Assembly (NCBI GenBank): GCA_963743825.1
Contig: CAVURC010000019.1
Location: 37,858 to 101,857 of the forward strand
Source: Ilumatobacteraceae bacterium
GTDB taxonomy: Bacteria; Actinomycetota; Acidimicrobiia; Acidimicrobiales; Ilumatobacteraceae
Length of the DNA stretch: 64,000 nucleotides
Direction of reading: 5' to 3'
Shown piece after piece: positions 1,925 through 64,000 of this stretch. The notes beneath the pieces were generated by a model. The model made no database searches. It worked only from the letters and a program-made list of their open reading frames with translations, and was not told the DNA's origin. The translations under genes and the position numbers were made by a program. Each line of letters starts with the position of its first letter. Positions within the stretch are counted from its first letter, which is position 1.

Positions 1925-2878
1925 TCAGTGGTGGACGTTGGCCTCGAGCCAGCGCTCGGCATCGATGGCCGCCATGCATCCCGATCCGGCCGCCGTGATC
2001 GCCTGGCGGTACACGTCGTCCTGCACGTCGCCGCACGCGAACACGCCGTCGACATCGGTGTACGACGAATCGTGCTTCGTCACCAGGTAGCCCGTTGTCG
2101 GGTCCAAGTCGAGCTGATCGATGAACAGGTCGGTGTTCGGACGGTGTCCGATTGCCACGAACAACCCGGTCACGGGCAGCGTCGAGACCGAGCCGTCGAC
2201 GGTGTTGGTGACCTCCACACCGCTCACGCTCGTCTCACCGAAGATCTCGGTGACCCGGGAGTTCCAGAGGAACTCGATCTTCGGGTTGGCGAGTGCGCGA
2301 TCCTGCATGATCTTCGAGGCACGCAACTCGTCGCGGCGATGGATGATGGTGACCTTGTCGGCGAATTTCGTGAGGAACGTCGCCTCTTCGATGGCCGAAT
2401 CGCCGCCGCCGACGACCGCAATCTCGTGCCCTCGGAAGAAGAAGCCGTCACAGGTGGCGCACGTCGACAATCCATGGCCGATGAGTCGCTGTTCGGCCTC
2501 GAGGCCGAGCATCAGTGACTGGGCGCCCGTGCTGACGATGACGGCGTTGGCCAAGTACTCGTCGTCGCGGATCCAGATCCGGAAGGGTCGCTGGGAGAAG
2601 TCGACCTTCGTCACCTTCTCGGTGATGATCTCGGTACCGAACCTCGTGGCCTGCGCGCGCATGTTGGCCATCAGGTCGGGGCCCATGATGCCGTCGGGGA
2701 AGCCCGGGAAGTTCTCGACCTCGGTCGTCAGCATGAGCTGGCCGCCGGGTTGATCGCTGGTACTCGACGGTTCACCCTCGATGAGCAGGGGCGACAGGTT
2801 GGCTCGGGCGGTGTAGATCGCTGCGGTCAGGCCGGCAGGGCCCGATCCGATGATGATGACGTCACGGACGTCGGCCAT
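1925..2878 (-). CDS. trxB: thioredoxin-disulfide reductase
   Basis: IIIGSGPAGLTAAIY FAD motif, CATCDG redox-active site, and NAD(P)H motif GGGDSA. Confidence 0.9.
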   Translation of the reverse strand: MADVRDVIIIGSGPAGLTAAIYTARANLSPLLIEGEPSSTSDQPGGQLMLTTEVENFPGFPDGIMGPDLMANMRAQATRFGTEIITEKVTKVDFSQRPFRIWIRDDEYLANAVIVSTGAQSLMLGLEAEQRLIGHGLSTCATCDGFFFRGHEIAVVGGGDSAIEEATFLTKFADKVTIIHRRDELRASKIMQDRALANPKIEFLWNSRVTEIFGETSVSGVEVTNTVDGSVSTLPVTGLFVAIGHRPNTDLFIDQLDLDPTTGYLVTKHDSSYTDVDGVFACGDVQDDVYRQAITAAGSGCMAAIDAERWLEANVHH

Positions 2879-2938
2879 GGGGACTCCTCGAGTGCGTTGG
2901 GGGTTGGGAAGCGCGCAGTGGACGGACTGGCCGAGCGC

Positions 2939-3262
2939 TCAACTCGCGGCGGTGTTGCGCTTCTTGAACAGCCACACGCCGGCGATCGAGAAGACACCTC
3001 CGACAATGAAGTAACTCAGGTAGACGGCGCGTTCCCAGGTGGTGGCCAGTTCGAGCAGCGACTGCAATCCGCGCATCGCCATCACGAGCGCAATGGTGAG
3101 CGCGAACGCCCCGACGATCAGGGCGATCAGGCCGAAGACCACGCCGCGCGCCGCATAGACGAGGTTCTGCGTCGTCTTCGACCGCACCGTGTCGATGAAG
3201 CTGACGACGATGTCGGTGGTCTCGGTGGCCCAGTTCGGATCGGTGAGCGGATTTGCGGGCAT
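2939..3262 (-). CDS. small hypothetical membrane protein (2 TM helices)
   Basis: 107-aa ORF with two hydrophobic helices, sitting between trxB and the anti-sigma gene. Confidence 0.5.
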   Translation of the reverse strand: MPANPLTDPNWATETTDIVVSFIDTVRSKTTQNLVYAARGVVFGLIALIVGAFALTIALVMAMRGLQSLLELATTWERAVYLSYFIVGGVFSIAGVWLFKKRNTAAS

Positions 3263-3283
3263 GGCGGCGAGGTTAGCCGCCGC

Positions 3284-4120
3284 TCACGGAAGGCGCGCGC
3301 GGGCGACTTCGCGGCAGTCCGCCGCTTCGTACGCAATGGCCAGTTCACGGCTCTCGTCGACGCCGACGACCACGCTGGTGGTTCCGTATCGCGCCGGGCC
3401 GACGACGTAGTCGGCACCGAGGCACAACGGCCACTGTGCGGCGAGAATCGTCGCCTGCGAATCGGTGAGTCGGTCGTCGATCGATTCGCTGGTTGCGGCC
3501 GGCACCTCGGGGTCCTGCGGCGCACCGACGGCGTCGGAGGCGAAGATCCCGAGTTCCTCGGGCGTGTCGAGTTGCTCGAGTTCGGTCTCGGTCGGTGGCG
3601 CGGCATCGTTGATGCCGGTGTCGAGTTCGGCGCCGTCGGCGGCGGCGATCGCGGGACCCGGTGCTGACGGCGCCACCTCGTCGGCGACGATCGCGGTTTC
3701 GGCTTCGGTCGATTCGGCGAGCGCTGCGACCTCGGGTGCGCTGGTCACCTCGCTGGCCGATTGCGTCGCCGAGTCGTCGTCGGTGCCGGACGAGACGGTC
3801 TGCAAGACGATGCCACCGGCGAGCACGAGCACGAGGGCCGCTGCGGCACCCAGGAGCCGGCGATTCGTGTTCGGGCGTCGGCGCTCGGCGAGTGGGATGG
3901 GTGGTGCGGGCACTCGGTCCCACGCGTCGAGGGCATTCGCCAGCAGCGATTCGCGCACCGAGATCGACGACGGCTCGACGTCAGCGAGCAGCACGCGGAC
4001 GTAACGCAGCCGGTCGACTTCCACGAGCAGTGCCGGGTCGGCCTCGACACGGGCGCGCTCGTCGGCGGTCACGTCACCATCGAGGTACGCGCTCGCAAGC
4101 AGAGTCAGGTCGTCGTTCAT
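3284..4120 (-). CDS. anti-sigma factor (membrane-anchored, non-ZAS)
   Basis: N-terminal anti-sigma domain (LLASAYLDGDVTADERARVEADPALL), one TM segment and an Ala/Asp-rich extracytoplasmic tail. Its start overlaps the sigma stop (ATGA). Confidence 0.7.
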   Translation of the reverse strand: MNDDLTLLASAYLDGDVTADERARVEADPALLVEVDRLRYVRVLLADVEPSSISVRESLLANALDAWDRVPAPPIPLAERRRPNTNRRLLGAAAALVLVLAGGIVLQTVSSGTDDDSATQSASEVTSAPEVAALAESTEAETAIVADEVAPSAPGPAIAAADGAELDTGINDAAPPTETELEQLDTPEELGIFASDAVGAPQDPEVPAATSESIDDRLTDSQATILAAQWPLCLGADYVVGPARYGTTSVVVGVDESRELAIAYEAADCREVARARLP

Positions 4121-6601: not shown

Positions 6602-7475
6602 TCAGGCGGGCGTGACCTGGAAGGCGACACCGATCGTTCCGCGGCCACCGTGGGTACCGATGACCGGGCCGATCTCGCCGACGACGATCTCTGCGGGATA
6701 GTGCTCTGCGAGCAACTCGACGAACAGGTCGACATCACTGCAGTCGGCGTGCATCACGGCGAGGTTCTCGATGTTGCCGTCGTAGCTCGTGACCTTGTCG
6801 ACCAGATACGACAGCGCCTTCGATCGGGTCCGTTGCTTGCCGGCCTGTTCGACGACTCCGCCGGTGACCTCGATGATCGGCTTGATCGACAGCGCAGTCG
6901 CCAGCATCGCCTTGGCGTTGCCGATGCGGCCACCCTTCTTGAGGTTGTCGAGTGTGTCGAGGGCCCCGAAGACGCGGGTGCGGTCGACCAGGTCGTGGGC
7001 GAGACGTTCGATGTCGTCGATGCCGTCGCCGTCGGTGGGCGGCGCGTGCGCAGGCGATGGCGATGGTGCCGAGGCCCATCGTGATCGTTCGGCTGTCGAC
7101 GACGCGCACGTCGAGGTCGATCGATTCGTCGGCGGCAATCGTTCGAGCGGCGAGCTGCGCAGATTGCATCGTGGCCGACAGCGCCGACGACAACGAGACG
7201 ACGAGCACGCTGCGCGCACCGTTGGCCGCAGCGTCACGGTAGACCAGTTCGTACTGGCCGGGGGCCGGCGCAGCGGTTTCGGGCAGTGTCGGAGAGTTGA
7301 CACATCGTGACCAGAACTCGGCGGTGGAGAGTTCCTCGCGGTCGACGAATTCCTCGTCGCCGAAACGGATCGTCAGCGGCACGATGACGATGCCGAGGTC
7401 GTCGGCGATCGATGCGGGGAGGTCACACGAGCTGTCGGTGACGATGACGACATCGTTGGAGTGCTGGGGGCTCAT
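6602..7475 (-). pseudogene. DegV family fatty-acid-binding protein, frameshifted near 7040-7050
   Basis: N-terminal DegV portion is in frame 7475 (MSPQHSNDVVIVTDSSCDLP...GLGTIAIACARAA). The C-terminal portion (DGDGIDDIERLAHDL...LKKGGRIGNAK...) is in frame 7303. Confidence 0.65.
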
Positions 7476-7481
7476 GGGGCG

Positions 7482-9672
7482 TCAGATTCTACTGCGCGCG
7501 CCGTTGGATGGCGGTCGCGTCCGTCGTCGTCGACCACGCGCTCGTCGCTTGGAACGCCAGTGCGAGAACCACCAGGTGAGCAGCACGAGGATGAACCCCC
7601 CGGTCAGGAGCTGGCCGAGCCCGGTGAAGCCCGTGACCCGCGAGGTCAGCGTGACCGGCTCGTCGATCGTGTCGCCTGCCGGCGTGGTGACCGTGAGGGT
7701 GATCGACGACGTGCCATTCGCGCGGGCCTCGACCGGAACGACGATCGTGGTTTCGTCGTTGGGGCGCAGGGTCACCTCCTGGTCGCCGTCGGGGAACTCG
7801 ACTTTCGACGACTCGAGGCGCATCGTCACGTTCAGCGGCTCGTTGCTGGAGTTGCCGAGCTGAATCTCGATCGTGCCGTTGCGGCCGGTCAGGGTGAACG
7901 TGAACGGCTCGGGCAGTTCGACGGCGTTCTCCAGCGCGTCGGCCTGAGCGACGAGTGCAGTCGTCGCCGCCTCGACGTCGGCATCGCTGTAGGCCGTCGA
8001 GATCAGTGCGTCGAGTTCGTTCGCCCACTCGGTCGGCCGGGGGTCGTCCGGCGGCAGCATCGACGCGACGCCGATCATTCGAGTTGCGGTCGCGTCGATC
8101 AACGCAACACGTTGGGAGAGTGACGGCCCGGCGACGTCGGGGAGTTCGACCGTCGACCGGCGCGCCGCCGTCGAGTTGTGTGTCGGTCACCCCGATGAGC
8201 GACGACGCAGCGGTGAAGCGCAGCGACGGCGTGGTCGCGACGAGGTCCTCCAGTCCGGCCAGGAGACGGGCGTCAGGTGTGGCGAGGTCGGGTGTCGTGA
8301 GGATCAAGCTGCGTTGGGCGGGTGGGCCGATGCGTTCCGTGTCGGCCTCGGCGCGGTCGATGAGGATCGTCGCTGCGGTCTGCACCGACCATTCGGTGGC
8401 CGTCGAGGTGGCCAGGATGTCGTCGGCGCCGGCCGGTGTGAGCTGCAGCGAGAGGGCGTCGACGATCAGGATCGGCAGTGTCCCACCGTCGGGGAGTTCG
8501 GCGTCGACGAAGAGATCGGTGTCGGGAAGCTGCGAACTCACCGTGTCGCGGTACAACTCGGCCGGCATCACCACGAAGCGGACGCCGAGATCGCGCAACT
8601 GCTGGGCACCTCCGGCGCTGAGCGCGTCGGTGGTGATCCACACGGTGCGCACGGCAGCCGCGGTGGGAACTGCCGCGGTCAGCAGTTCCTCACCGGCGTT
8701 GACCAGTCGGGTGTAGGTCTCGGCGCGTCCGGCCGCGACGGCCGACGAGACGTCGAGCGGCACGACCGGGAGCGCGACGAGTTCGTCACCTTCGAGCGCG
8801 GCGGCGAGGCGCTCGGCCCCCGCTGGTGTCGCCGCCACCTCTGCCACGAGCGTCGGCGGGACCTCGAGGGTGACTGGTGCGTCGAGCGTCGCCGCGAGGT
8901 CGACGGCTTCGTCGAGGGCTGTCTGGGCGGCTGCGCGTTCGGCCGAGGTTGCTCGTGGTGACGGTGAGGGGGTCACTGCGACGACGGACAGATCGATGGG
9001 TGGCGCCGGCGTCTCGGTCGGTCCCGGCAGTCGCTGCACGATGGTGCCGGCGGTGGCGATGATGTTGTCGTCGCGTGGATCACCGGTCTTGAGCTGCACG
9101 CGCAGGGGGTAGAGGCCTGGACGTTCGAACTTGAGCCGCTGCTCGACGCTGTCGACGACGTCGGTCTGGATCTCGAGTGTGAACTCGACGGATCCGTCGT
9201 CGCCGACTGTCGCACGTTCGCGGAGGTCGGTGATGGCGACGCCGTCGATGGCGCCGGTGAACGCGGTGGGGTCGACATCGCTGCCCACGAGCTCGTCGAC
9301 GTCGGCGCTGTTCGTGAGGGGCAGATAGTTCGTCACCTCGATCGTGAGCGGGATCGGCTCGGGAGCGTCGGGGGGCGTGCTGGTGTCGGCGGTGGTGTCG
9401 ACCGGTGCCTCGACCACCTCGTCGACCACTGCGGGCTGCACGGCGAGTTCGAGTGCATCGTCTGCGACGCCGACGAGCCGGTATCGAAGCTGGATGACTC
9501 CATCGGGTTCGAACGCGAAGCTCTGGCCGACGAGTTCGAGGCGTGGGGTCGTCGGCGTCACCTGAGTGGTTCGTCCGGTCGAGGCGTCGACGTTGCCGGA
9601 CAGCGTGAGCGCGGCGAGCACCACGACCGCTGATCCGAGCCCACGACACGACGATGCAGAGATCGGTCTCAT
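7482..9672 (-). pseudogene. large secreted/membrane-anchored protein (Rv3909-like), frameshifted near 8100-8160
   Basis: Starts MRPISASS with a signal peptide (ATGA overlap with the GNAT stop). The real C-terminus (TM anchor LLTGGFILVLLTWW plus basic tail) is in the other frame (ORF 7482..8102); the main frame degenerates into an Arg-rich tail. Confidence 0.6.
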
Positions 9673-18185: not shown

Positions 18186-19571
18186 ATGTCGATCGATCGA
18201 GAACTCGGAACCAACCGCACTGAGCGCAGTGGTAGTGCCACAAGCCGTGGCGGGCGCGTGCCTCCCCACAACCTGCAGGCCGAGGAGTCGGTGCTCGGCG
18301 CACTGCTGTTGTCGCGTGACGCCATCGGCGTCGTCGGCGAGGCCGGGCTCAACGTCCGTGACTTCTACAGCCCTGCGCACCAGCAGATCTTCGACTCGGT
18401 CCGCTCGCTGTATTCGTCGTCGGGCCCCGTCGACGTGGTCACGGTTGCCGACGAGCTGCGCCGCCACGGACTGCTCGACGAGATCGGTGGCATCGCGCGG
18501 CTGAACGACCTGCAGAACGCCACGCCGTCGGTGTCGGGTGCCGAACACTATGCCCGCATCGTGATGGACACGGCGCTGCTGCGACGCCTGATCCAGACGG
18601 CCGGCGAGATCACCGACCTCGCCTTCAGTGAGCCCGACGACGTCACCAAGGCCGTCGACCTCGCCGAGTCGAAGATGTTCGAAGTGGCCGAGGATCGTGT
18701 GGTCGATTCGACCCGCCAGATCCAGGAACTCCTCAACGAGACGATGGATCAACTCGAGGAGAACTACGAGCGCGGCGACACCATCACCGGTGCGGCAACC
18801 GGCTACGACGATCTCGACGAACTGCTGTCGGGTCTCCAGCCGAGCACCCTGAACATCGTCGGTGCCCGCCCGGCGATGGGAAAAACCAGTTTCGGGTTGG
18901 GTATGGCGACCCACATTGCGAAGCATTCGGCCAAGCCGGTGCTCGTGTTCTCGCTCGAGATGGGACACTCGGAACTGACGCAGCGCATCCTCGCGAGCGA
19001 GGCGAAGGTCGACTCGACGAAGTTGCGCACCGGCAAGCTCAGCGAAAGCGACTGGTCGAAGATCGGGCTCGCGGTCGGTCGGTTGGAAGTGCCGTTGTTC
19101 CTCGACGACAACCCGCAGGTCACGGTGATGGAGATCCGTGCCAAGGCACGGCGCATCAAGGCCCAGCACGGCGGACTGGCGCTGATCATGATCGATTACC
19201 TGCAGCTGATGAGCGGCAGTGGGCGCTCGGAGAACCGCCAGCTCGAAGTCAGCGAGATCAGTCGAAACCTGAAGGTGCTCGCCCGTGAGCTGGAGGTGCC
19301 GATCGTTGCGCTCAGCCAGCTGAGCCGAAACCTCGAGGCCCGGTCGGACAAACGTCCGATGCTGGCCGACCTGCGCGAGTCGGGCTCGCTCGAACAGGAC
19401 GCCGACGTGGTGATGTTCCTCTACCGCGACGAGGTCTACAACCCCGAGTCGCCCGACAAGGGCTCGGCCGAGGTGATCGTCTCGAAGCATCGATCCGGCC
19501 CGATCGGCACCAAGCGACTGGTCTTCCTCGGCCAGTACACGAGATTCGACAACGCCGCCCGCTCGATGTGA
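18186..19571 (+). CDS. dnaB: replicative DNA helicase DnaB (intein-free)
   Basis: N-terminal DnaB domain (HNLQAEESVLGALLL), Walker A GARPAMGKTSF, and RecA-like C-terminal domain. Confidence 0.9.
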   Translation: MSIDRELGTNRTERSGSATSRGGRVPPHNLQAEESVLGALLLSRDAIGVVGEAGLNVRDFYSPAHQQIFDSVRSLYSSSGPVDVVTVADELRRHGLLDEIGGIARLNDLQNATPSVSGAEHYARIVMDTALLRRLIQTAGEITDLAFSEPDDVTKAVDLAESKMFEVAEDRVVDSTRQIQELLNETMDQLEENYERGDTITGAATGYDDLDELLSGLQPSTLNIVGARPAMGKTSFGLGMATHIAKHSAKPVLVFSLEMGHSELTQRILASEAKVDSTKLRTGKLSESDWSKIGLAVGRLEVPLFLDDNPQVTVMEIRAKARRIKAQHGGLALIMIDYLQLMSGSGRSENRQLEVSEISRNLKVLARELEVPIVALSQLSRNLEARSDKRPMLADLRESGSLEQDADVVMFLYRDEVYNPESPDKGSAEVIVSKHRSGPIGTKRLVFLGQYTRFDNAARSM

Positions 19572-19606
19572 CGTACACGATGTGTCAGACACATCGTGTA
19601 CGTCAC
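19568..19606. terminator. 39-bp perfect palindrome (19-bp arms, 1-nt loop) spanning the stop codons of convergent dnaB and the DSD1-like gene
   Basis: GTGACGTACACGATGTGTC-A-GACACATCGTGTACGTCAC. dnaB TGA at 19569-71; minus-strand TGA at 19603-05. Confidence 0.6.
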
Positions 19607-20618
19607 CAGTGGCGCAGGTCGATGGGCCAACGGTCGCGGATGTTGTCACCGTCCACGATCCAGAAGTTCTCGTGTCGGGCCACGGTCGGGTCGACATGCG
19701 ACGGCCAGATGCGGACGCGGTCGCCGACCTTCCAGTTGCCGAGTTCGCGAGGCAGCAGTGTGATGTGTTCATCGGAGCAGAAGAACACGTCACCCTCGTC
19801 CCACGACGGGTTGCCATGATCCATGCCGAAGGCCTTCAGGCCGGCGTCGGCGATGATCCAACCCTTCGAGCTGATCGACACGACGGTGGCCAGCACGGAC
19901 AACGCCTTCTCGAACGGTGACTCGAGTTCGTCGTACTGGGTGTCCATCAGCATGTAGGAACCTGCCTGGATCTCGGTGCACCACGTGTTGAGATCGAACG
20001 TGCCGGTGCCCCCGCCCGACACGATGTCGCCGCCCACCATCGAGTGCGCCTGCAGCAGGATCGCCATCGCCACTTCGACCTTCTCGCGCTTGGCGGCGCG
20101 GTCGTGGATCATCATGAGATGGCCTTCGTACCCCATCACGCCGCGCACCTCGAGGCCGGCCGAGCGGGCCCGATCAGCGAGGCGCCCGGCATCCTCCACA
20201 TCGCAACCGCACCGTGGCAGGCCGACATCGACATCGACCAGCACCGAGCGGACACCTCCGCGAACTGCGGCGTCGAGCGTCTCGTCGGAATCGATCGCCA
20301 CGGTGATGTTCGCTCGGTCGGCGAGCGCTCCCAGTCGGGCGGCGTCGAGCGTCTCGTTGGCGAGGAGGAGGTCATCGGTGAGGCCGGCGGCCACGAGTCC
20401 CTCGATCTCTCGCGGTGTCGCGGCGCAGAAGCTGTGGTGCCCATCGGCGTCGAGCCGTTTCGCCATCTCGGTCGACTTGAACGCCTTGACGTGTGGGCGA
20501 AGCTGGCGCCGGGGAGCACGGCGTCCATCGCAGCCAGGTTGCGGTCGAACGTGGGAGCGTCGACGAGGAGTGCCGGCGTGGTCAGGTCGTCGATCGTCAC
20601 GGGTGTCGGAGAGGTCAC
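19603..20618 (-). pseudogene. DSD1-family PLP enzyme (alanine-racemase-fold; D-serine deaminase / D-threonine aldolase-like), frameshifted near 20480
   Basis: N-terminus MTSPTPVTIDDLTTPALLVDAPTFDRNLAAMDAVLPGASF in frame 20618. The rest (MAKRLDADGHHSFCAATPREIEGLVAAG...) in frame 20466. A single C missing in gcccac restores APHVKAFKSTEMAKRL. Confidence 0.6.
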
Positions 20619-25828: not shown

Positions 25829-26872
25829 TCAGTCGACGGGGACGGGTTCCACGTCGAAGGCTTCGATCCGGCCGTCGGCGTGACGGGCGAAGCGGCGCGG
25901 TGTCGGGCCATGGTTCGGGTCGTCGCTGCCCCACGGCCAGCCACCGAACTGCGTGCGACGGTAGTCCTCGAATGCCTGCTGGATCTCGGCCTGCGTGTTC
26001 ATGACGAACGGTCCGTACTGCGCCACCGGCTCGCCGATCGGCCGGCCCTGCAGCACCATGCACTCGACCCCGTCGTCACCGGCGACGAGCTCGAGTGGAC
26101 GCGATGAGTCGAGCACGGCCCCGTGCCCGGCGTCGAGCCGTTCGCCGTCGACGGTGAGCCAGGAGCCGGCGAAGGCATAGAGCAGGCGGTGCGTGTCGGC
26201 ATCGGCGGTGGCCGGCATCGTCCATCGGGCACCGGCGTCGAAACGGAGGTGCCAGATCGCAACGTCGGCCTCCGCCTTCGAAGCCCACGAGTTCGGCGGG
26301 GGAGCCGGTGCAGTGACGTTCGCCAGCGAGCCGGCGATCACCGTGATGTCGACGATGGCCCCATCGTCCGACGGCTCGGCGATGACAGTCGGCGTCTCGT
26401 GGCTCCACAGCATGGTGAAGTACGGATCGACCATCTTGTCGGCGGCGGGAAGATTGAGCCAGATCTGGAACAGCTCCAGCGGGTTCGGACCGTCGTGGTC
26501 GAGAAGCGGGAACATCTCGCAGTGCACGATGCCCTTGCCGGCAGTCATCCACTGCGTGTCACCCCGCCCGAAACGTGCCGTCGCACCGAGCGAGTCGCTG
26601 TGATCGCAGAAGCCGGTGCGGACGTAGGTGACGGTCTCGAAGCCGCGATGCGGGTGCTGCGGAAATCCGGGCACGGTCGAGCCGTGGTACATGTTCCACC
26701 CGTCCACCCCGGCGAAGTCCATCCCGATGTCGCGTCCGACGAGCGGTGCGTCCGGACCGAGCCCCTCGGTGCCTTCGGGGTAGTCGTCGCGGTGATGTGC
26801 GCAGAAGAGGAACGGATCGATCGTCGGCCACTGCGTACCGAGCGGGAACGTCTGCAGAAGTGCATCAGCCAT
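25829..26872 (-). CDS. pirin family protein
   Basis: Cupin metal-binding HPHRGFETVTYV...H...E. Confidence 0.8.
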   Translation of the reverse strand: MADALLQTFPLGTQWPTIDPFLFCAHHRDDYPEGTEGLGPDAPLVGRDIGMDFAGVDGWNMYHGSTVPGFPQHPHRGFETVTYVRTGFCDHSDSLGATARFGRGDTQWMTAGKGIVHCEMFPLLDHDGPNPLELFQIWLNLPAADKMVDPYFTMLWSHETPTVIAEPSDDGAIVDITVIAGSLANVTAPAPPPNSWASKAEADVAIWHLRFDAGARWTMPATADADTHRLLYAFAGSWLTVDGERLDAGHGAVLDSSRPLELVAGDDGVECMVLQGRPIGEPVAQYGPFVMNTQAEIQQAFEDYRRTQFGGWPWGSDDPNHGPTPRRFARHADGRIEAFDVEPVPVD

Positions 26873-26923: not shown

Positions 26924-26976
26924 CCGAAATGTGCGGGGAGATGTGCACCTGGCGCACATCTCCCCGCATTTTTCGG
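26924..26976 (+). repeat. 53-bp imperfect palindromic repeat element, copy 1
   Basis: CCGAAATGTGCGGGGAGATGTGCACCTGGCGCACATCTCCCCGCATTTTTCGG. About 50 of 53 positions self-complementary. Confidence 0.7.
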
Positions 26977-27026
26977 GTTGGATGCGCGGCTGTTGACGCC
27001 GGCTGGTCGCCTCCCATTAGCGTGCC

Positions 27027-28274
27027 GTGGTGTCCACCGCCCGCGATGTGCTCCGGTATCCCGCCGTGCGGCGGTACCTGCTGTCGACCGCATTGGCCGC
27101 AGTCGGGCTGAACATCCTCGTCACGGTGCTCTTCAAGCAGGCGTTCGACATCACCGGTGACACGCTCGCGATCGGGCTCATCGGCCTCGCTCAGTTCATC
27201 CCTGCGGTGATGCTCGTCCTGGTCAGCGGCTGGGTCGCCGACCGATTCGACCGTCGCCGCGTCACGGCGGTGTTCCTCCTCGCTCGAACACTGTGTGCCG
27301 TCGGCTTCGTGATCTACAGCCAGAGCGACTCGGGCTCGATCTGGCCGTTGTTCGCGATCGCGTTCGTGTTCGGCGCCGCCGACGCGATGCTGGCTCCGTC
27401 GCGTCGCTCGATCGCCCCGTTGCTGGCTCCGACCGAGCTGTTCCCACAGGTGGTCGCGCTCTGGACGGCCACGTTCACGGCGTCGGCGATCGTCGGTCCG
27501 GTGATCGGTGGCTTTCTCTACTCGGTCGGCCCTGCCCAGGCCTATGCGCTTGCCGGTGTCCTCGAGTTCGCCGCCATCATCCCGATCCTGATGATCGTCT
27601 ACGCGCGCGAACCGGGCCGGATCACCGACCGGCCGACCCTCCACACGGCACTGGAGGGTTTGCGGTTCGTCCGTCACACTCCCGTCGTTCTCGGCACGAT
27701 CTCACTCGATCTGTTCGCCGTGCTGTTCGGCGGAGCGATCGCCCTCATCCCGGCCGTCGCGAGTGAGCAACTCGGCGTGGGCGACATCGCGTACGGGTGG
27801 CTGCGCGCGGCACCCGGTATCGGCGCGGCGGTGATGGCGCTGTGGCTCGCCGTGCGCCCGGTCACGCGACGGGTCGGCCCGACACTGCTGATCGTGGTGG
27901 CAGTCTTCGGCCTCGGCACGATGGTGTTCGGGTTGACGACGAACTACGCGGTTGCGTTCGTTGCGTTGATCGTGATCTCGGCCGCCGACATGGTGTCGAT
28001 GTTCATCCGCGGGTCGATCGTCCCGCTCGTCACACCCGACGATCAACTCGGCCGTGTGAGTGCCGTCGAGGGCGTGTTCATCGGTGCGTCGAACGAACTC
28101 GGAGCGTTCGAGAGCGGTGTCGCAGCTCGGATGTTCGGGGTGCCGTGGGCGATTGCCGGCGGAGGCTTGATCACCGTTGGAGTCGCCGCGACCTTCGCGG
28201 TGGTCTTCCCCTCGCTCCGCAGGATCGACACGTTCGATGAACTGCGGCCGGCGTCGACCGCCGCCGTGGTCTGA
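27027..28274 (+). CDS. MFS transporter (12 TM)
   Basis: Multiple TM helices and the MFS motif GWVADRFDRRRV. Confidence 0.8.
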   Translation: MVSTARDVLRYPAVRRYLLSTALAAVGLNILVTVLFKQAFDITGDTLAIGLIGLAQFIPAVMLVLVSGWVADRFDRRRVTAVFLLARTLCAVGFVIYSQSDSGSIWPLFAIAFVFGAADAMLAPSRRSIAPLLAPTELFPQVVALWTATFTASAIVGPVIGGFLYSVGPAQAYALAGVLEFAAIIPILMIVYAREPGRITDRPTLHTALEGLRFVRHTPVVLGTISLDLFAVLFGGAIALIPAVASEQLGVGDIAYGWLRAAPGIGAAVMALWLAVRPVTRRVGPTLLIVVAVFGLGTMVFGLTTNYAVAFVALIVISAADMVSMFIRGSIVPLVTPDDQLGRVSAVEGVFIGASNELGAFESGVAARMFGVPWAIAGGGLITVGVAATFAVVFPSLRRIDTFDELRPASTAAVV

Positions 28275-28276
28275 CC

Positions 28277-28329
28277 CCGAAATGTGCGGGGATATGTGCA
28301 CTGGGTGCACATCTCCCCGCATTTTTCGG
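28277..28329 (+). repeat. 53-bp imperfect palindromic repeat element, copy 2 (same orientation as copy 1)
   Basis: CCGAAATGTGCGGGGATATGTGCACTGGGTGCACATCTCCCCGCATTTTTCGG, 3 nt after the MFS stop. Followed by TTCGG repeated at 11-nt period (28325-28351). Confidence 0.7.
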
Positions 28330-28361
28330 TAGGTGTTCGGTAGGTCTTCGGCGAGGGCGGG

Positions 28362-29039
28362 TCAGGTCGAGCGGGTGTAGAGCAGGTCGACCGGTTGGCG
28401 GCCGGCGTCGAGACCTCGTTGTTCGAAGCGGGTGAGCGGGCGCCAATCCGGTCGCTCGATGACGCCACCGGTCAGGCGAGTCTCCGCGTCACAGACAGCC
28501 TGCATCGACTCGGCGTAGTCGACGATGTCGGTCGCGAGGTGCAGGAAGCCACCTGCGCGCAGACGGTCGACCAGGGCGGCGAGCACGTCCGGTCGAATGA
28601 GGCGGCGGTGATGGTTGCGCCGCTTCGTCCATGGGTCGGGGAAGTACACGCGGATGCCGGCGAGCGATTCCGCCGGTACTCGGTCGAGAAATGGCAGGAC
28701 GTCGCCGTGGACGACTCGGATCTGGTGCAGCCCCTGATGTTCGATGGCGTCGAGCACGGTGACCACCCCGGGTGTGTGTACCTCGACGCCGATCACGTCG
28801 ATGTCGGGCTCGACGGCCGCCAGTGCAATGGTCGACTCGCCGTGGCCGAACCCCACATCGAGCACGACATCGCCGGCGCGTCCGAACACGTCCGACCAAT
28901 CGAGGAGCGGGCCGTCGATCGGCAACCCCCACACCTCGATCCAGGCGTCGAACTCTGCCTGTCGCTTCGGTGACAGCGAGCGCCGCCGAACCTTGAACGA
29001 CGCAGCGGGTCGGCGAATCGAGCGGGCCTCGGTGGTCAT
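28362..29039 (-). CDS. trmB: tRNA (guanine46-N7)-methyltransferase
   Basis: VLDVGFGHGEST, FPDPWTKRRNHHRRL. Confidence 0.85.
   Translation of the reverse strand: MTTEARSIRRPAASFKVRRRSLSPKRQAEFDAWIEVWGLPIDGPLLDWSDVFGRAGDVVLDVGFGHGESTIALAAVEPDIDVIGVEVHTPGVVTVLDAIEHQGLHQIRVVHGDVLPFLDRVPAESLAGIRVYFPDPWTKRRNHHRRLIRPDVLAALVDRLRAGGFLHLATDIVDYAESMQAVCDAETRLTGGVIERPDWRPLTRFEQRGLDAGRQPVDLLYTRST

Positions 29040-62551: not shown

Positions 62552-64000
<1,449 letters not shown>

Follow-up and report, generated by a model that had tools for sequence, protein, structure and literature searches.

Two copies of a 53-nt palindromic element lie on either side of a gene for an MFS transporter in a 64,000-nt stretch of DNA from an Ilumatobacteraceae bacterium (GenBank assembly GCA_963743825.1, contig CAVURC010000019.1, positions 37,858 to 101,857), hereafter called the window. 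The Ilumatobacteraceae, a family of Actinomycetota, are abundant in soils and waters, and most of them are uncultured. According to Pfam matches, the genes at this locus are purK(+), pirin(-), MFS(+), a TrmB-type methyltransferase(-), and AzlC(+). A preliminary description, made by reading the sequence, had reported both copies at coordinates that we confirm (Table 1), and had treated their precise flanking of the transporter gene as meaningful. We find that these copies belong to a previously undescribed family of short palindromes that are interspersed between genes and restricted to the Ilumatobacteraceae lineage. That they bracket the MFS gene is incidental, a by-product of the intergenic distribution of the family in a compact genome.

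Elements in the window

Copy 1 has the sequence CCGAAATGTGCG-GGGAGATGTGCACCTGGCGCACATCTCCC-CGCATTTTTCGG. As had been described, it is located in the spacer between the divergent pirin and MFS genes, and ends 50 nt before the GTG start codon of the latter (27027). Copy 2 begins 2 nt past the TGA stop codon of the same gene (28272-28274). The strong likeness of the two copies was recognized from the outset, with the exact value being 92.5% (49/53 identical) rather than the 94% first given. Both copies are near-perfect hairpins, in agreement with their initial characterization as palindromes. When folded as RNA in 73-nt windows, copy 1 has a minimum free energy of -49.4 kcal/mol (z = -9.1) and copy 2 of -41.2 kcal/mol (z = -6.1), and 0/200 shuffled sequences fold as well as either one. 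The judgment that these sequences are not a CRISPR array, an insertion sequence (IS) element, or a tRNA was also correct.

A third copy in the window had been overlooked. It resides 18 nt past a stop codon and is oriented opposite to copies 1 and 2. Its ends and apical part are those of the other two copies, whereas its mid-stem is changed on both arms, making it the more diverged member of the set. A 25-nt half-pattern of the element matches the window five times, compared to 0.00 expected from shuffled sequences. No part of the window matches an Rfam 15 family at the gathering score, and only generic miRNA-precursor hairpins appear far below this threshold.

Table 1. Coordinates of the elements, echoes of their terminal motif, and nearby genes. 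Coordinates refer to the window unless a comparison locus (L-number) is given.
Feature	Coordinates	Strand	Description
Copy 1	26924..26976	+	53-nt palindromic element, F orientation, divergent pirin(-)/MFS(+) spacer
Copy 2	28277..28329	+	53-nt element, F orientation, convergent MFS(+)/TrmB(-) spacer
Copy 3	63230..63282	-	53-nt element, F orientation on minus strand, tandem-gene spacer
MFS transporter gene (MFS_1/MFS_3)	27027..28274	+	Pfam; bracketed by copies 1 and 2, context only
Pirin gene	25829..26872	-	Pfam; divergent from MFS, context
TrmB-type tRNA (m7G46) methyltransferase gene	28362..29039	-	Pfam; convergent with MFS, context
11-nt tandem echo of terminal motif, TAGGTGTTCGG TAGGTCTTCGG	28330..28351	+	In G/T-rich 3' flank that arrived with copy 2
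Terminal-motif echo GGGGTTTCGGGG	63283..63294	+	Adjoins copy 3; from sequence
In-frame element, L058	L058:7679-7731	-	Within gene 6664-7998; strand is that of the gene
In-frame element, L029	L029:3023-3075	+	Within gene 2579-4066; strand is that of the gene
In-frame element, L063	L063:1256-1308	+	Within gene 800-2050; strand is that of the gene

A repeat family in Ilumatobacteraceae

A genome collection was scanned with the pattern GAAATGTGCG N{23,35} CGCATTTTTC, which yielded at least 88 loci. Approximately 75 of these come from at least 11 metagenome-assembled genomes (MAGs) of Ilumatobacteraceae (Acidimicrobiia), and in every one of them the interior is exactly 29 nt long. Matches with other interior lengths are attributed to chance because they occur in unrelated phyla and lack a palindrome. 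The element is therefore far from unique to the two sites flanking the MFS gene; such uniqueness was what the preliminary description had named as grounds for its dismissal. Loci retrieved for comparison carry L-numbers (e.g., L089).

Within the retrieved loci, the search was then relaxed to permit three mismatches in each end, and this provided 105 unique members. Members with 0, 1, 2, and 3 total end mismatches number 70, 22, 12, and 6, respectively. Given this steep fall-off, the conservation of the ends cannot be put down merely to the way in which members were collected. The counts of copies per genome are minimum values, with three copies in the 64-kb window and at least 29 copies in 22 loci of a single MAG. 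Searches of the literature uncovered no description of repeats in Ilumatobacter and nothing relevant on repetitive extragenic palindromic (REP) elements or REP-associated tyrosine transposases (RAYTs) in Actinobacteria.

Several sister versions of the element (L029:4088-4140, L056:7502, L077:5703, and L017:2234) share the 12+29+12 frame of the family and end in CCGAAA...TTTCGG, whereas their inner boxes are different, for example of the CCGAATTCGGA type (L029:4088 reads CCGAAATTCGGA-[29]-TCCGAATTTCGG). These versions occupy sites that hold a canonical element in other genomes, and thus the family is wider than the search pattern.

One locus carries a typical pair of elements on a contig labeled ‘uncultured Planctomycetota bacterium’ (L033, CALODL010000021.1). 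The pair has the R-to-F arrangement described below, and its flanks are 76-85% identical to those of two Ilumatobacteraceae loci (L009 and L064). The contig or its bin is probably taxonomically mislabeled or misbinned. The repeat family can serve in this manner as a marker for binning and strain typing.

Conserved boxes and a variable core

Each element consists of CCGAAATGTGCG, exactly 29 nt, and CGCATTTTTCGG. Among the 105 members, positions 1-12 (CCGAAAtGTGCG) and 42-53 (CGCATTTTTCGG) are 90-100% conserved. These two boxes pair to form a basal stem that is interrupted by a T·T mismatch at 7:47 and a G·T pair at 8:46 in 101/105 members. The fixed mismatch gives the element a polarity, and its two orientations are named F and R. 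Tracts of A3 and T5 invariably bracket the GC-rich stem, and on the F strand the stem can be seen by eye to be followed by T5. The boxes nearly always occur as pairs at the fixed distance and rarely alone (84 vs. 3 for one box and 86 vs. 1 for the other). This rules out a family built from a single word of the DNA uptake sequence (DUS/USS) type.

The 29-nt core, in comparison, is hypervariable. Its mean pairwise identity is only 13.3/29, with the 5' half being somewhat more conserved. Despite this variation, pairing within the core is maintained to a measurable extent across the family. Paired cells make up 77%, compared to 72.5% in shuffles (0/500), and double-sided changes number 223 rather than the 137±12 seen in shuffles (0/500). 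The covariation score is 0.164 versus 0.094, and every slid register scores lower. Most of this covariation derives from the apical pairs 19-22:32-35, whereas pairs 15-18 are near null. The core is far better folded than its own shuffles in 39% of members, and the three copies in the window are among the most perfect hairpins. The folding z scores of the window copies, together with the family-wide pairing and covariation, reveal the short imperfect palindrome with a stem-loop that is characteristic of REP elements.

The loops at core positions 25-29 occur as reverse-complement pairs relative to the polarity of the boxes (CTCAG 21 vs. CTGAG 8; CTGGG 7 vs. CCCAG 6), and in one doublet (L053) the boxes face opposite ways even though the two cores repeat in the same direction. 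The polarity of a core is thus not tied to that of its boxes, which may result from hairpin-templated repair or from recombination between the arms.

The usual flanks are C-rich on the 5' side and G/T-rich on the 3' side, extending the unit to about 72 nt. No flank position exceeds 0.34 bits of information, and the flanks carry no conserved 5' tetranucleotide of the GTAG type. Conservation therefore sits within the basal stem and not in the flanks. An extension of the hairpin into complementary flanks was considered and rejected. Elements fold with their own flanks at -9.4 kcal/mol and with swapped flanks at -9.0 kcal/mol (z = -1.5), meaning that the complementarity of the flanks is only compositional.

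On either side, ~12% of singlets have an echo of the terminal motif (TTCGG/CCGAA) at 6-12 nt beyond the element, like those beside copies 2 and 3 in Table 1, and this frequency is ~10x background. Slippage, decayed neighboring elements, and extra protein sites are all possible origins for these echoes.

Placement relative to genes

Gene positions were established with a self-trained codon log-odds caller, which assigned 88% of the sequence as coding and agrees with the genes supported by Pfam. Approximately 88% of members reside outside of called genes, and the rest are mostly overlaps at the ends of genes. Convergent, tandem, and divergent spacers hold 26, 42, and 15 members, respectively, against baseline numbers of 94, 339, and 86 spacers. 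Convergent spacers are therefore enriched (26/83 vs. 18% of the baseline, p = 0.004), whereas the 18% of copies in divergent (promoter) spacers equals the baseline. Copies are typically located +2 to ~+100 nt after stop codons, with many at 2-40 nt. In tandem spacers, no orientation bias was detected, with the F strand co-oriented with the genes in 16 cases and anti-oriented in 13. There is also no sign of target-site duplications: 87/105 members lack abutting direct repeats, compared to 84.7 expected, and alignments to empty sites agree.

Although most sites are singlets, some elements occur as close pairs with a strict geometry. In all 17/17 close pairs the R element precedes the F element (the R-to-F arrangement; p about 6e-11), and in 13 of them the starts of the two elements are exactly 72 nt apart. 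The 19-nt spacer within these doublets is not conserved in sequence, but is G-rich and then C-rich. The doublet looks like two ~72-nt units abutted head-to-head.

Single genes bracketed by element pairs are common elsewhere in the retrieved loci. On the basis of reading their translations alone, these include Pth-like, ribosomal protein L25/Ctc-like, and oxidoreductase-like genes. The open reading frames (ORFs) bracketed by inverted elements in three loci (L048, L058, and L077) were considered as possible transposases, but read instead as oxidoreductases or a DUF559-like protein.

Copies flagged as lying in coding sequence are mostly due to miscalled start codons, or to genes whose last codons and stop are within the element. 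One true exception is an in-frame element in the middle of a gene, which is present as an orthologous trio in three MAGs (Table 1). This gene is intact and codes for an FAD-dependent epoxidase-like protein, whose alignment to MonCI/Lsd18 over residues 3-476 (E = 1e-21) runs straight through the element-encoded loop. The element contributes PKNAP..APGAHS.AHFG to this surface loop. The arrangement indicates insertion into pre-existing sequence, and it also means that transcription is not efficiently terminated by the hairpin, at least when this is read in the R direction.

Other genes take their stop codon from an element after a few codons (L022:185, L065:3461, L077:3945, L083:36, and L080:3938), which provides C-terminal tails such as ...LRKMRPRAR* and ...VRKMRTSAS*. 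The L080 protein runs through the element and is ~21 residues longer than its element-free L045 orthologue. For annotation, the element explains odd C-terminal extensions of this kind as well as the one in-frame insert.

Gain, loss, and persistence

Elements at orthologous sites were evaluated in 98 comparisons, and in ~72% of these both loci carry an element. Sites may be empty or hold a singlet or a doublet, and differences between singlet and doublet or between presence and absence are frequent. The L080 and L045 loci provide a clean filled/empty pair. Copy 3 of the window is orthologous to L055:6020-6072, which occupies the same site in the same orientation and has identical 13-nt ends, but carries an unrelated core. 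A segment of the spacer near these two elements is 100% conserved.

Cores are more alike within a genome (16.4-17.7/29) than overall, and near-identical cores at unlinked sites are evidence for real dispersal. Elements of this family can thus persist for long periods, yet they also turn over and form subfamilies specific to single genomes, and only the boxes and the lengths are under strong constraint. Because empty, singlet, and doublet states can be compared at orthologous sites, the family is a natural system for examining how REP-like elements arise, decay, and persist outside Proteobacteria.

History of the elements at the MFS locus

Exact copies of the MFS, TrmB, and PurK proteins of the window are absent from the collection searched, which therefore does not include the source genome. 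Relatives of the window were collected as a graded series from TrmB homologues, and their contigs were retrieved for synteny. The order AzlC-TrmB-MFS-pirin-...-PurK is kept in five relatives that carry 0-2 copies of the element, which establishes that the MFS gene is neither a cassette nor mobile. Copy 1 is identical in a 98% relative (L089), has a diverged core in a 92% relative (L090), and is absent from 87-88% relatives (L091-L093), while the corresponding spacer of L053 holds a doublet. Copy 2 is missing in L090, L091, L093, and L053. The TrmB and MFS genes overlap in L090, and relatives without copy 2 have unrelated small hairpins between the convergent genes. In L089, copy 2 is present but has no 3' box.

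Additional clues come from the arms of the hairpins. The left arm of copy 2 (GGGATATGTGCA) is the same as the left arm of copy 1 in L090. In contrast, copy 1 of both the window and L089 has the left arm GGGAGATGTGCA, which pairs perfectly with its right arm. The cores of copies 1 and 2, which are 1.35 kb apart, are 25/29 identical, placing them in the top 0.24% of all pairs. Given the left-arm match, copy 2 is best read as a copy of ancestral copy 1. On these sequence comparisons, copy 1 predates the split from L090. Copy 2 was most likely gained after this split and before the split from L089, being copied from ancestral copy 1. In the simplest reading, copy 1 would later have gained a stem-perfecting T-to-G change.

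The preliminary description had also raised the possibility that the two copies mediate deletion or duplication of the transporter gene. No relative examined lacks the MFS gene or has an extra copy, and its amino acid identity is 96-97% in L089 and L090, with 97.5% for the full-length gene of L089. The suggestion that this transporter is a mobile or unstable cassette is therefore removed. In L089 the gene (L089:10744-12043) is full length but split by a 1-nt frameshift or indel, which may be a long-read homopolymer error or the mark of a young pseudogene.

Comparison with known palindromic repeats

REP elements, REPINs, and BIMEs of Proteobacteria are mobilized by RAYT transposases of the Y1 HUH type (PMC3116915, PMC3337134, PMC5581495, PMC3479197). 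Like these repeats, the Ilumatobacteraceae elements are short imperfect palindromes that are extragenic, present in many copies, and devoid of target-site duplications. They likewise form inverted doublets of fixed spacing, have long-lived and mostly vertical inheritance, and comprise genome-specific subfamilies. In both groups, conserved irregularities of the stem suggest that a folded strand is recognized. The likeness has limits, however. The sequences are unrelated, the host phylum is different, and the 5' GTAG-type tetranucleotide that serves as the group 2 cleavage signal is missing. Only the 12-nt boxes are conserved around a core that is hypervariable at fixed length, whereas REPIN populations cluster around a master sequence. 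Furthermore, some Ilumatobacteraceae copies occur in promoter spacers and one is within a gene, and no RAYT was found in the ~830 kb searched. Of the early proposal that the element is REP/MITE-like, the REP-like portion holds. Miniature inverted-repeat transposable elements (MITEs) are ruled out by the missing target-site duplications around terminal inverted repeats.

A second precedent is the ‘Tuberculosis Rho-independent terminator’ (TRIT), which is represented by 147 conserved copies in the single actinobacterial genus Mycobacterium; these are palindromic, lie at gene ends, and are mostly bidirectional (RNIE paper, PMC3152330). Both families are actinobacterial, confined to one lineage, conserved in sequence and structure, and composed of ~100 or more palindromic copies. 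Both are found mostly near gene ends and are potentially bidirectional, and a binding factor is presumed. However, TRITs are placed narrowly at about -8 relative to the stop codon, whereas the Ilumatobacteraceae elements range from +2 to ~+100 and also occupy divergent spacers. Doublets and a hypervariable core have not been described for TRITs. Viewed against both precedents, the repeats constitute a new REP-like (TRIT-like) family.

Rickettsia palindromic elements (RPEs) are ~100-150 bp long, specific to Rickettsia, and frequently intragenic, where they reside in frame without destroying genes. The trio of in-frame elements in L058, L029, and L063 recalls this behavior, but intragenic residence is exceptional here, amounting to one orthologous trio among ~105 members. 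A resemblance also exists to integron attC sites and Xer-site (pdif) modules, which can also flank single genes and have imperfectly palindromic sequences, conserved at the ends and variable in the center. The Ilumatobacteraceae elements nevertheless end in CCGAAA/TTTCGG and not in the GTTRRRY/RYYYAAC of attC sites. They have no cassette array or integrase, and the genes they flank are syntenic housekeeping genes. Xer sites are further distinguished by a geometry of 11+6-8+11 rather than 12+29+12.

Proposed mechanism and alternative explanations

The best explanation overall, and one that we hold to be probable, is that these repeats form a REP-like family whose conserved basal stem is recognized as a folded strand by a protein. 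The mismatched basal stem would be the recognition site for a protein acting on the folded single-stranded hairpin. By analogy with RAYT/Y1 transposases and REP elements, this protein would most likely be the enzyme responsible for copying the element. That a folded strand is recognized, as in RAYT-REP or attC systems, is suggested by the conserved mismatch in an otherwise perfect basal stem, the strict unit lengths, the fixed geometry of doublets, and the lack of target-site duplications. The family thereby appears to point to a hairpin-recognizing protein. Within transcripts, the hairpin might have the secondary role of weakly terminating transcription in both directions or of forming a 3'-end structure.

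Several observations weigh against this explanation. No transposase or RAYT-like gene was encountered in ~830 kb, where tblastn searches seeded with IS608, IS200, and Escherichia coli RAYT sequences returned only noise (E > 0.4). There is no bias for a replication strand, although the GC skew (12 vs. 18) and gene-strand bias (17 vs. 18) used to judge this are weak proxies. Approximately 45% of members have cores that are no more structured than shuffles, and core diversity within genomes is much above that of classical REPIN populations. Together with the retention of elements at most orthologous sites, this diversity means that the family may be mostly old and vertically inherited, with its boxes kept by a host function and not by mobility. 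The comparison data also come from MAGs exclusively, members were ascertained via their conserved ends, and gene calls were made with our own script. A variant of the proposal is that the basal stem docks a dedicated Acidimicrobiia protein, either a hairpin-processing enzyme unrelated to RAYTs or a domesticated host factor, through a copying or maintenance mechanism that is new for bacterial repeats. We regard this variant as rather unlikely. If true, the variable core of fixed length, the two loop orientations, the 72-nt doublets, and the in-frame residence would all reflect that undescribed mechanism.

Equally improbable in our estimation is that the element is a lineage-specific, TRIT-like bidirectional intrinsic terminator, whose boxes bind a termination factor and whose dispersal is secondary. 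The invariant A3 and T5 tracts around the stem, the enrichment between convergent genes, and the many copies shortly after stop codons are what a terminator would display. Copy 2 even occupies a convergent spacer in which relatives have other small hairpins, and TRITs (PMC3152330) supply a precedent in one actinobacterial genus. A terminator should nevertheless respect the direction of the upstream gene, given that the U5 tail is present on one strand only, and the orientation of the elements is random. This same randomness, along with the in-frame copy, weakens the earlier suggestions of a large operator and of a strand-specific RNA serving as 5' untranslated region element and terminator. 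Divergent spacers, including that of copy 1, hold their baseline share of copies, and in three MAGs an element is transcribed and translated within an intact gene. A generic terminator function would also leave the invariant mismatch and the fixed 29-nt core unexplained, and a scan for consensus terminators did not flag the copies. The hairpin may nonetheless terminate transcription as a secondary function.

The boxes could alternatively be double-stranded DNA sites, helically phased for a nucleoid-associated or global regulatory protein, with the hairpin being incidental. Their invariance and spacing fit this idea, since the distance between box centers is 41 bp inside a unit (~4 helical turns) and 31 bp over a doublet junction (~3 turns). 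The absence of orientation bias, the terminal-motif echoes about one helical turn away, and the many nonpalindromic cores fit as well. We consider it less likely still, however, in that the covariation of the apical stem is real, the copies are mostly at the 3' ends of genes and not at promoters, and gains and losses behave as insertions of whole units. Moreover, a site for a symmetric dimer would not need two boxes that are conserved as different sequences, as they are here through the T·T/G·T asymmetry. Least credible by far is the view that the copies are attC- or pdif-like recombination sites of a mobile MFS cassette, or that they drive deletion or duplication of this gene. Two copies in the same orientation do surround exactly one gene, and recombination between direct repeats of 53 nt is conceivable. 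Synteny largely refutes this view, because the AzlC-TrmB-MFS-pirin order is the same in relatives with no copy or one copy, every relative examined has the MFS gene, and the two copies did not arrive at the same time. The elements also lack the attC core-site consensus, no integrase or Xer-like gene is present among the neighbors checked, and at other sites the genes between paired elements are housekeeping ones, such as Pth and L25.

An unrelated palindrome in the window

The window contains one additional palindrome at 19568-19606, which is a perfect 19-bp inverted repeat (GTGACGTACACGATGTGTC a GACACATCGTGTACGTCAC). It fills the gap between two convergent ORFs at 18186-19571 (+) and 19603-20466 (-), and overlaps both of their stop codons. 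Its sequence is unrelated to the 53-nt family, and it is likely an ordinary bidirectional terminator hairpin.

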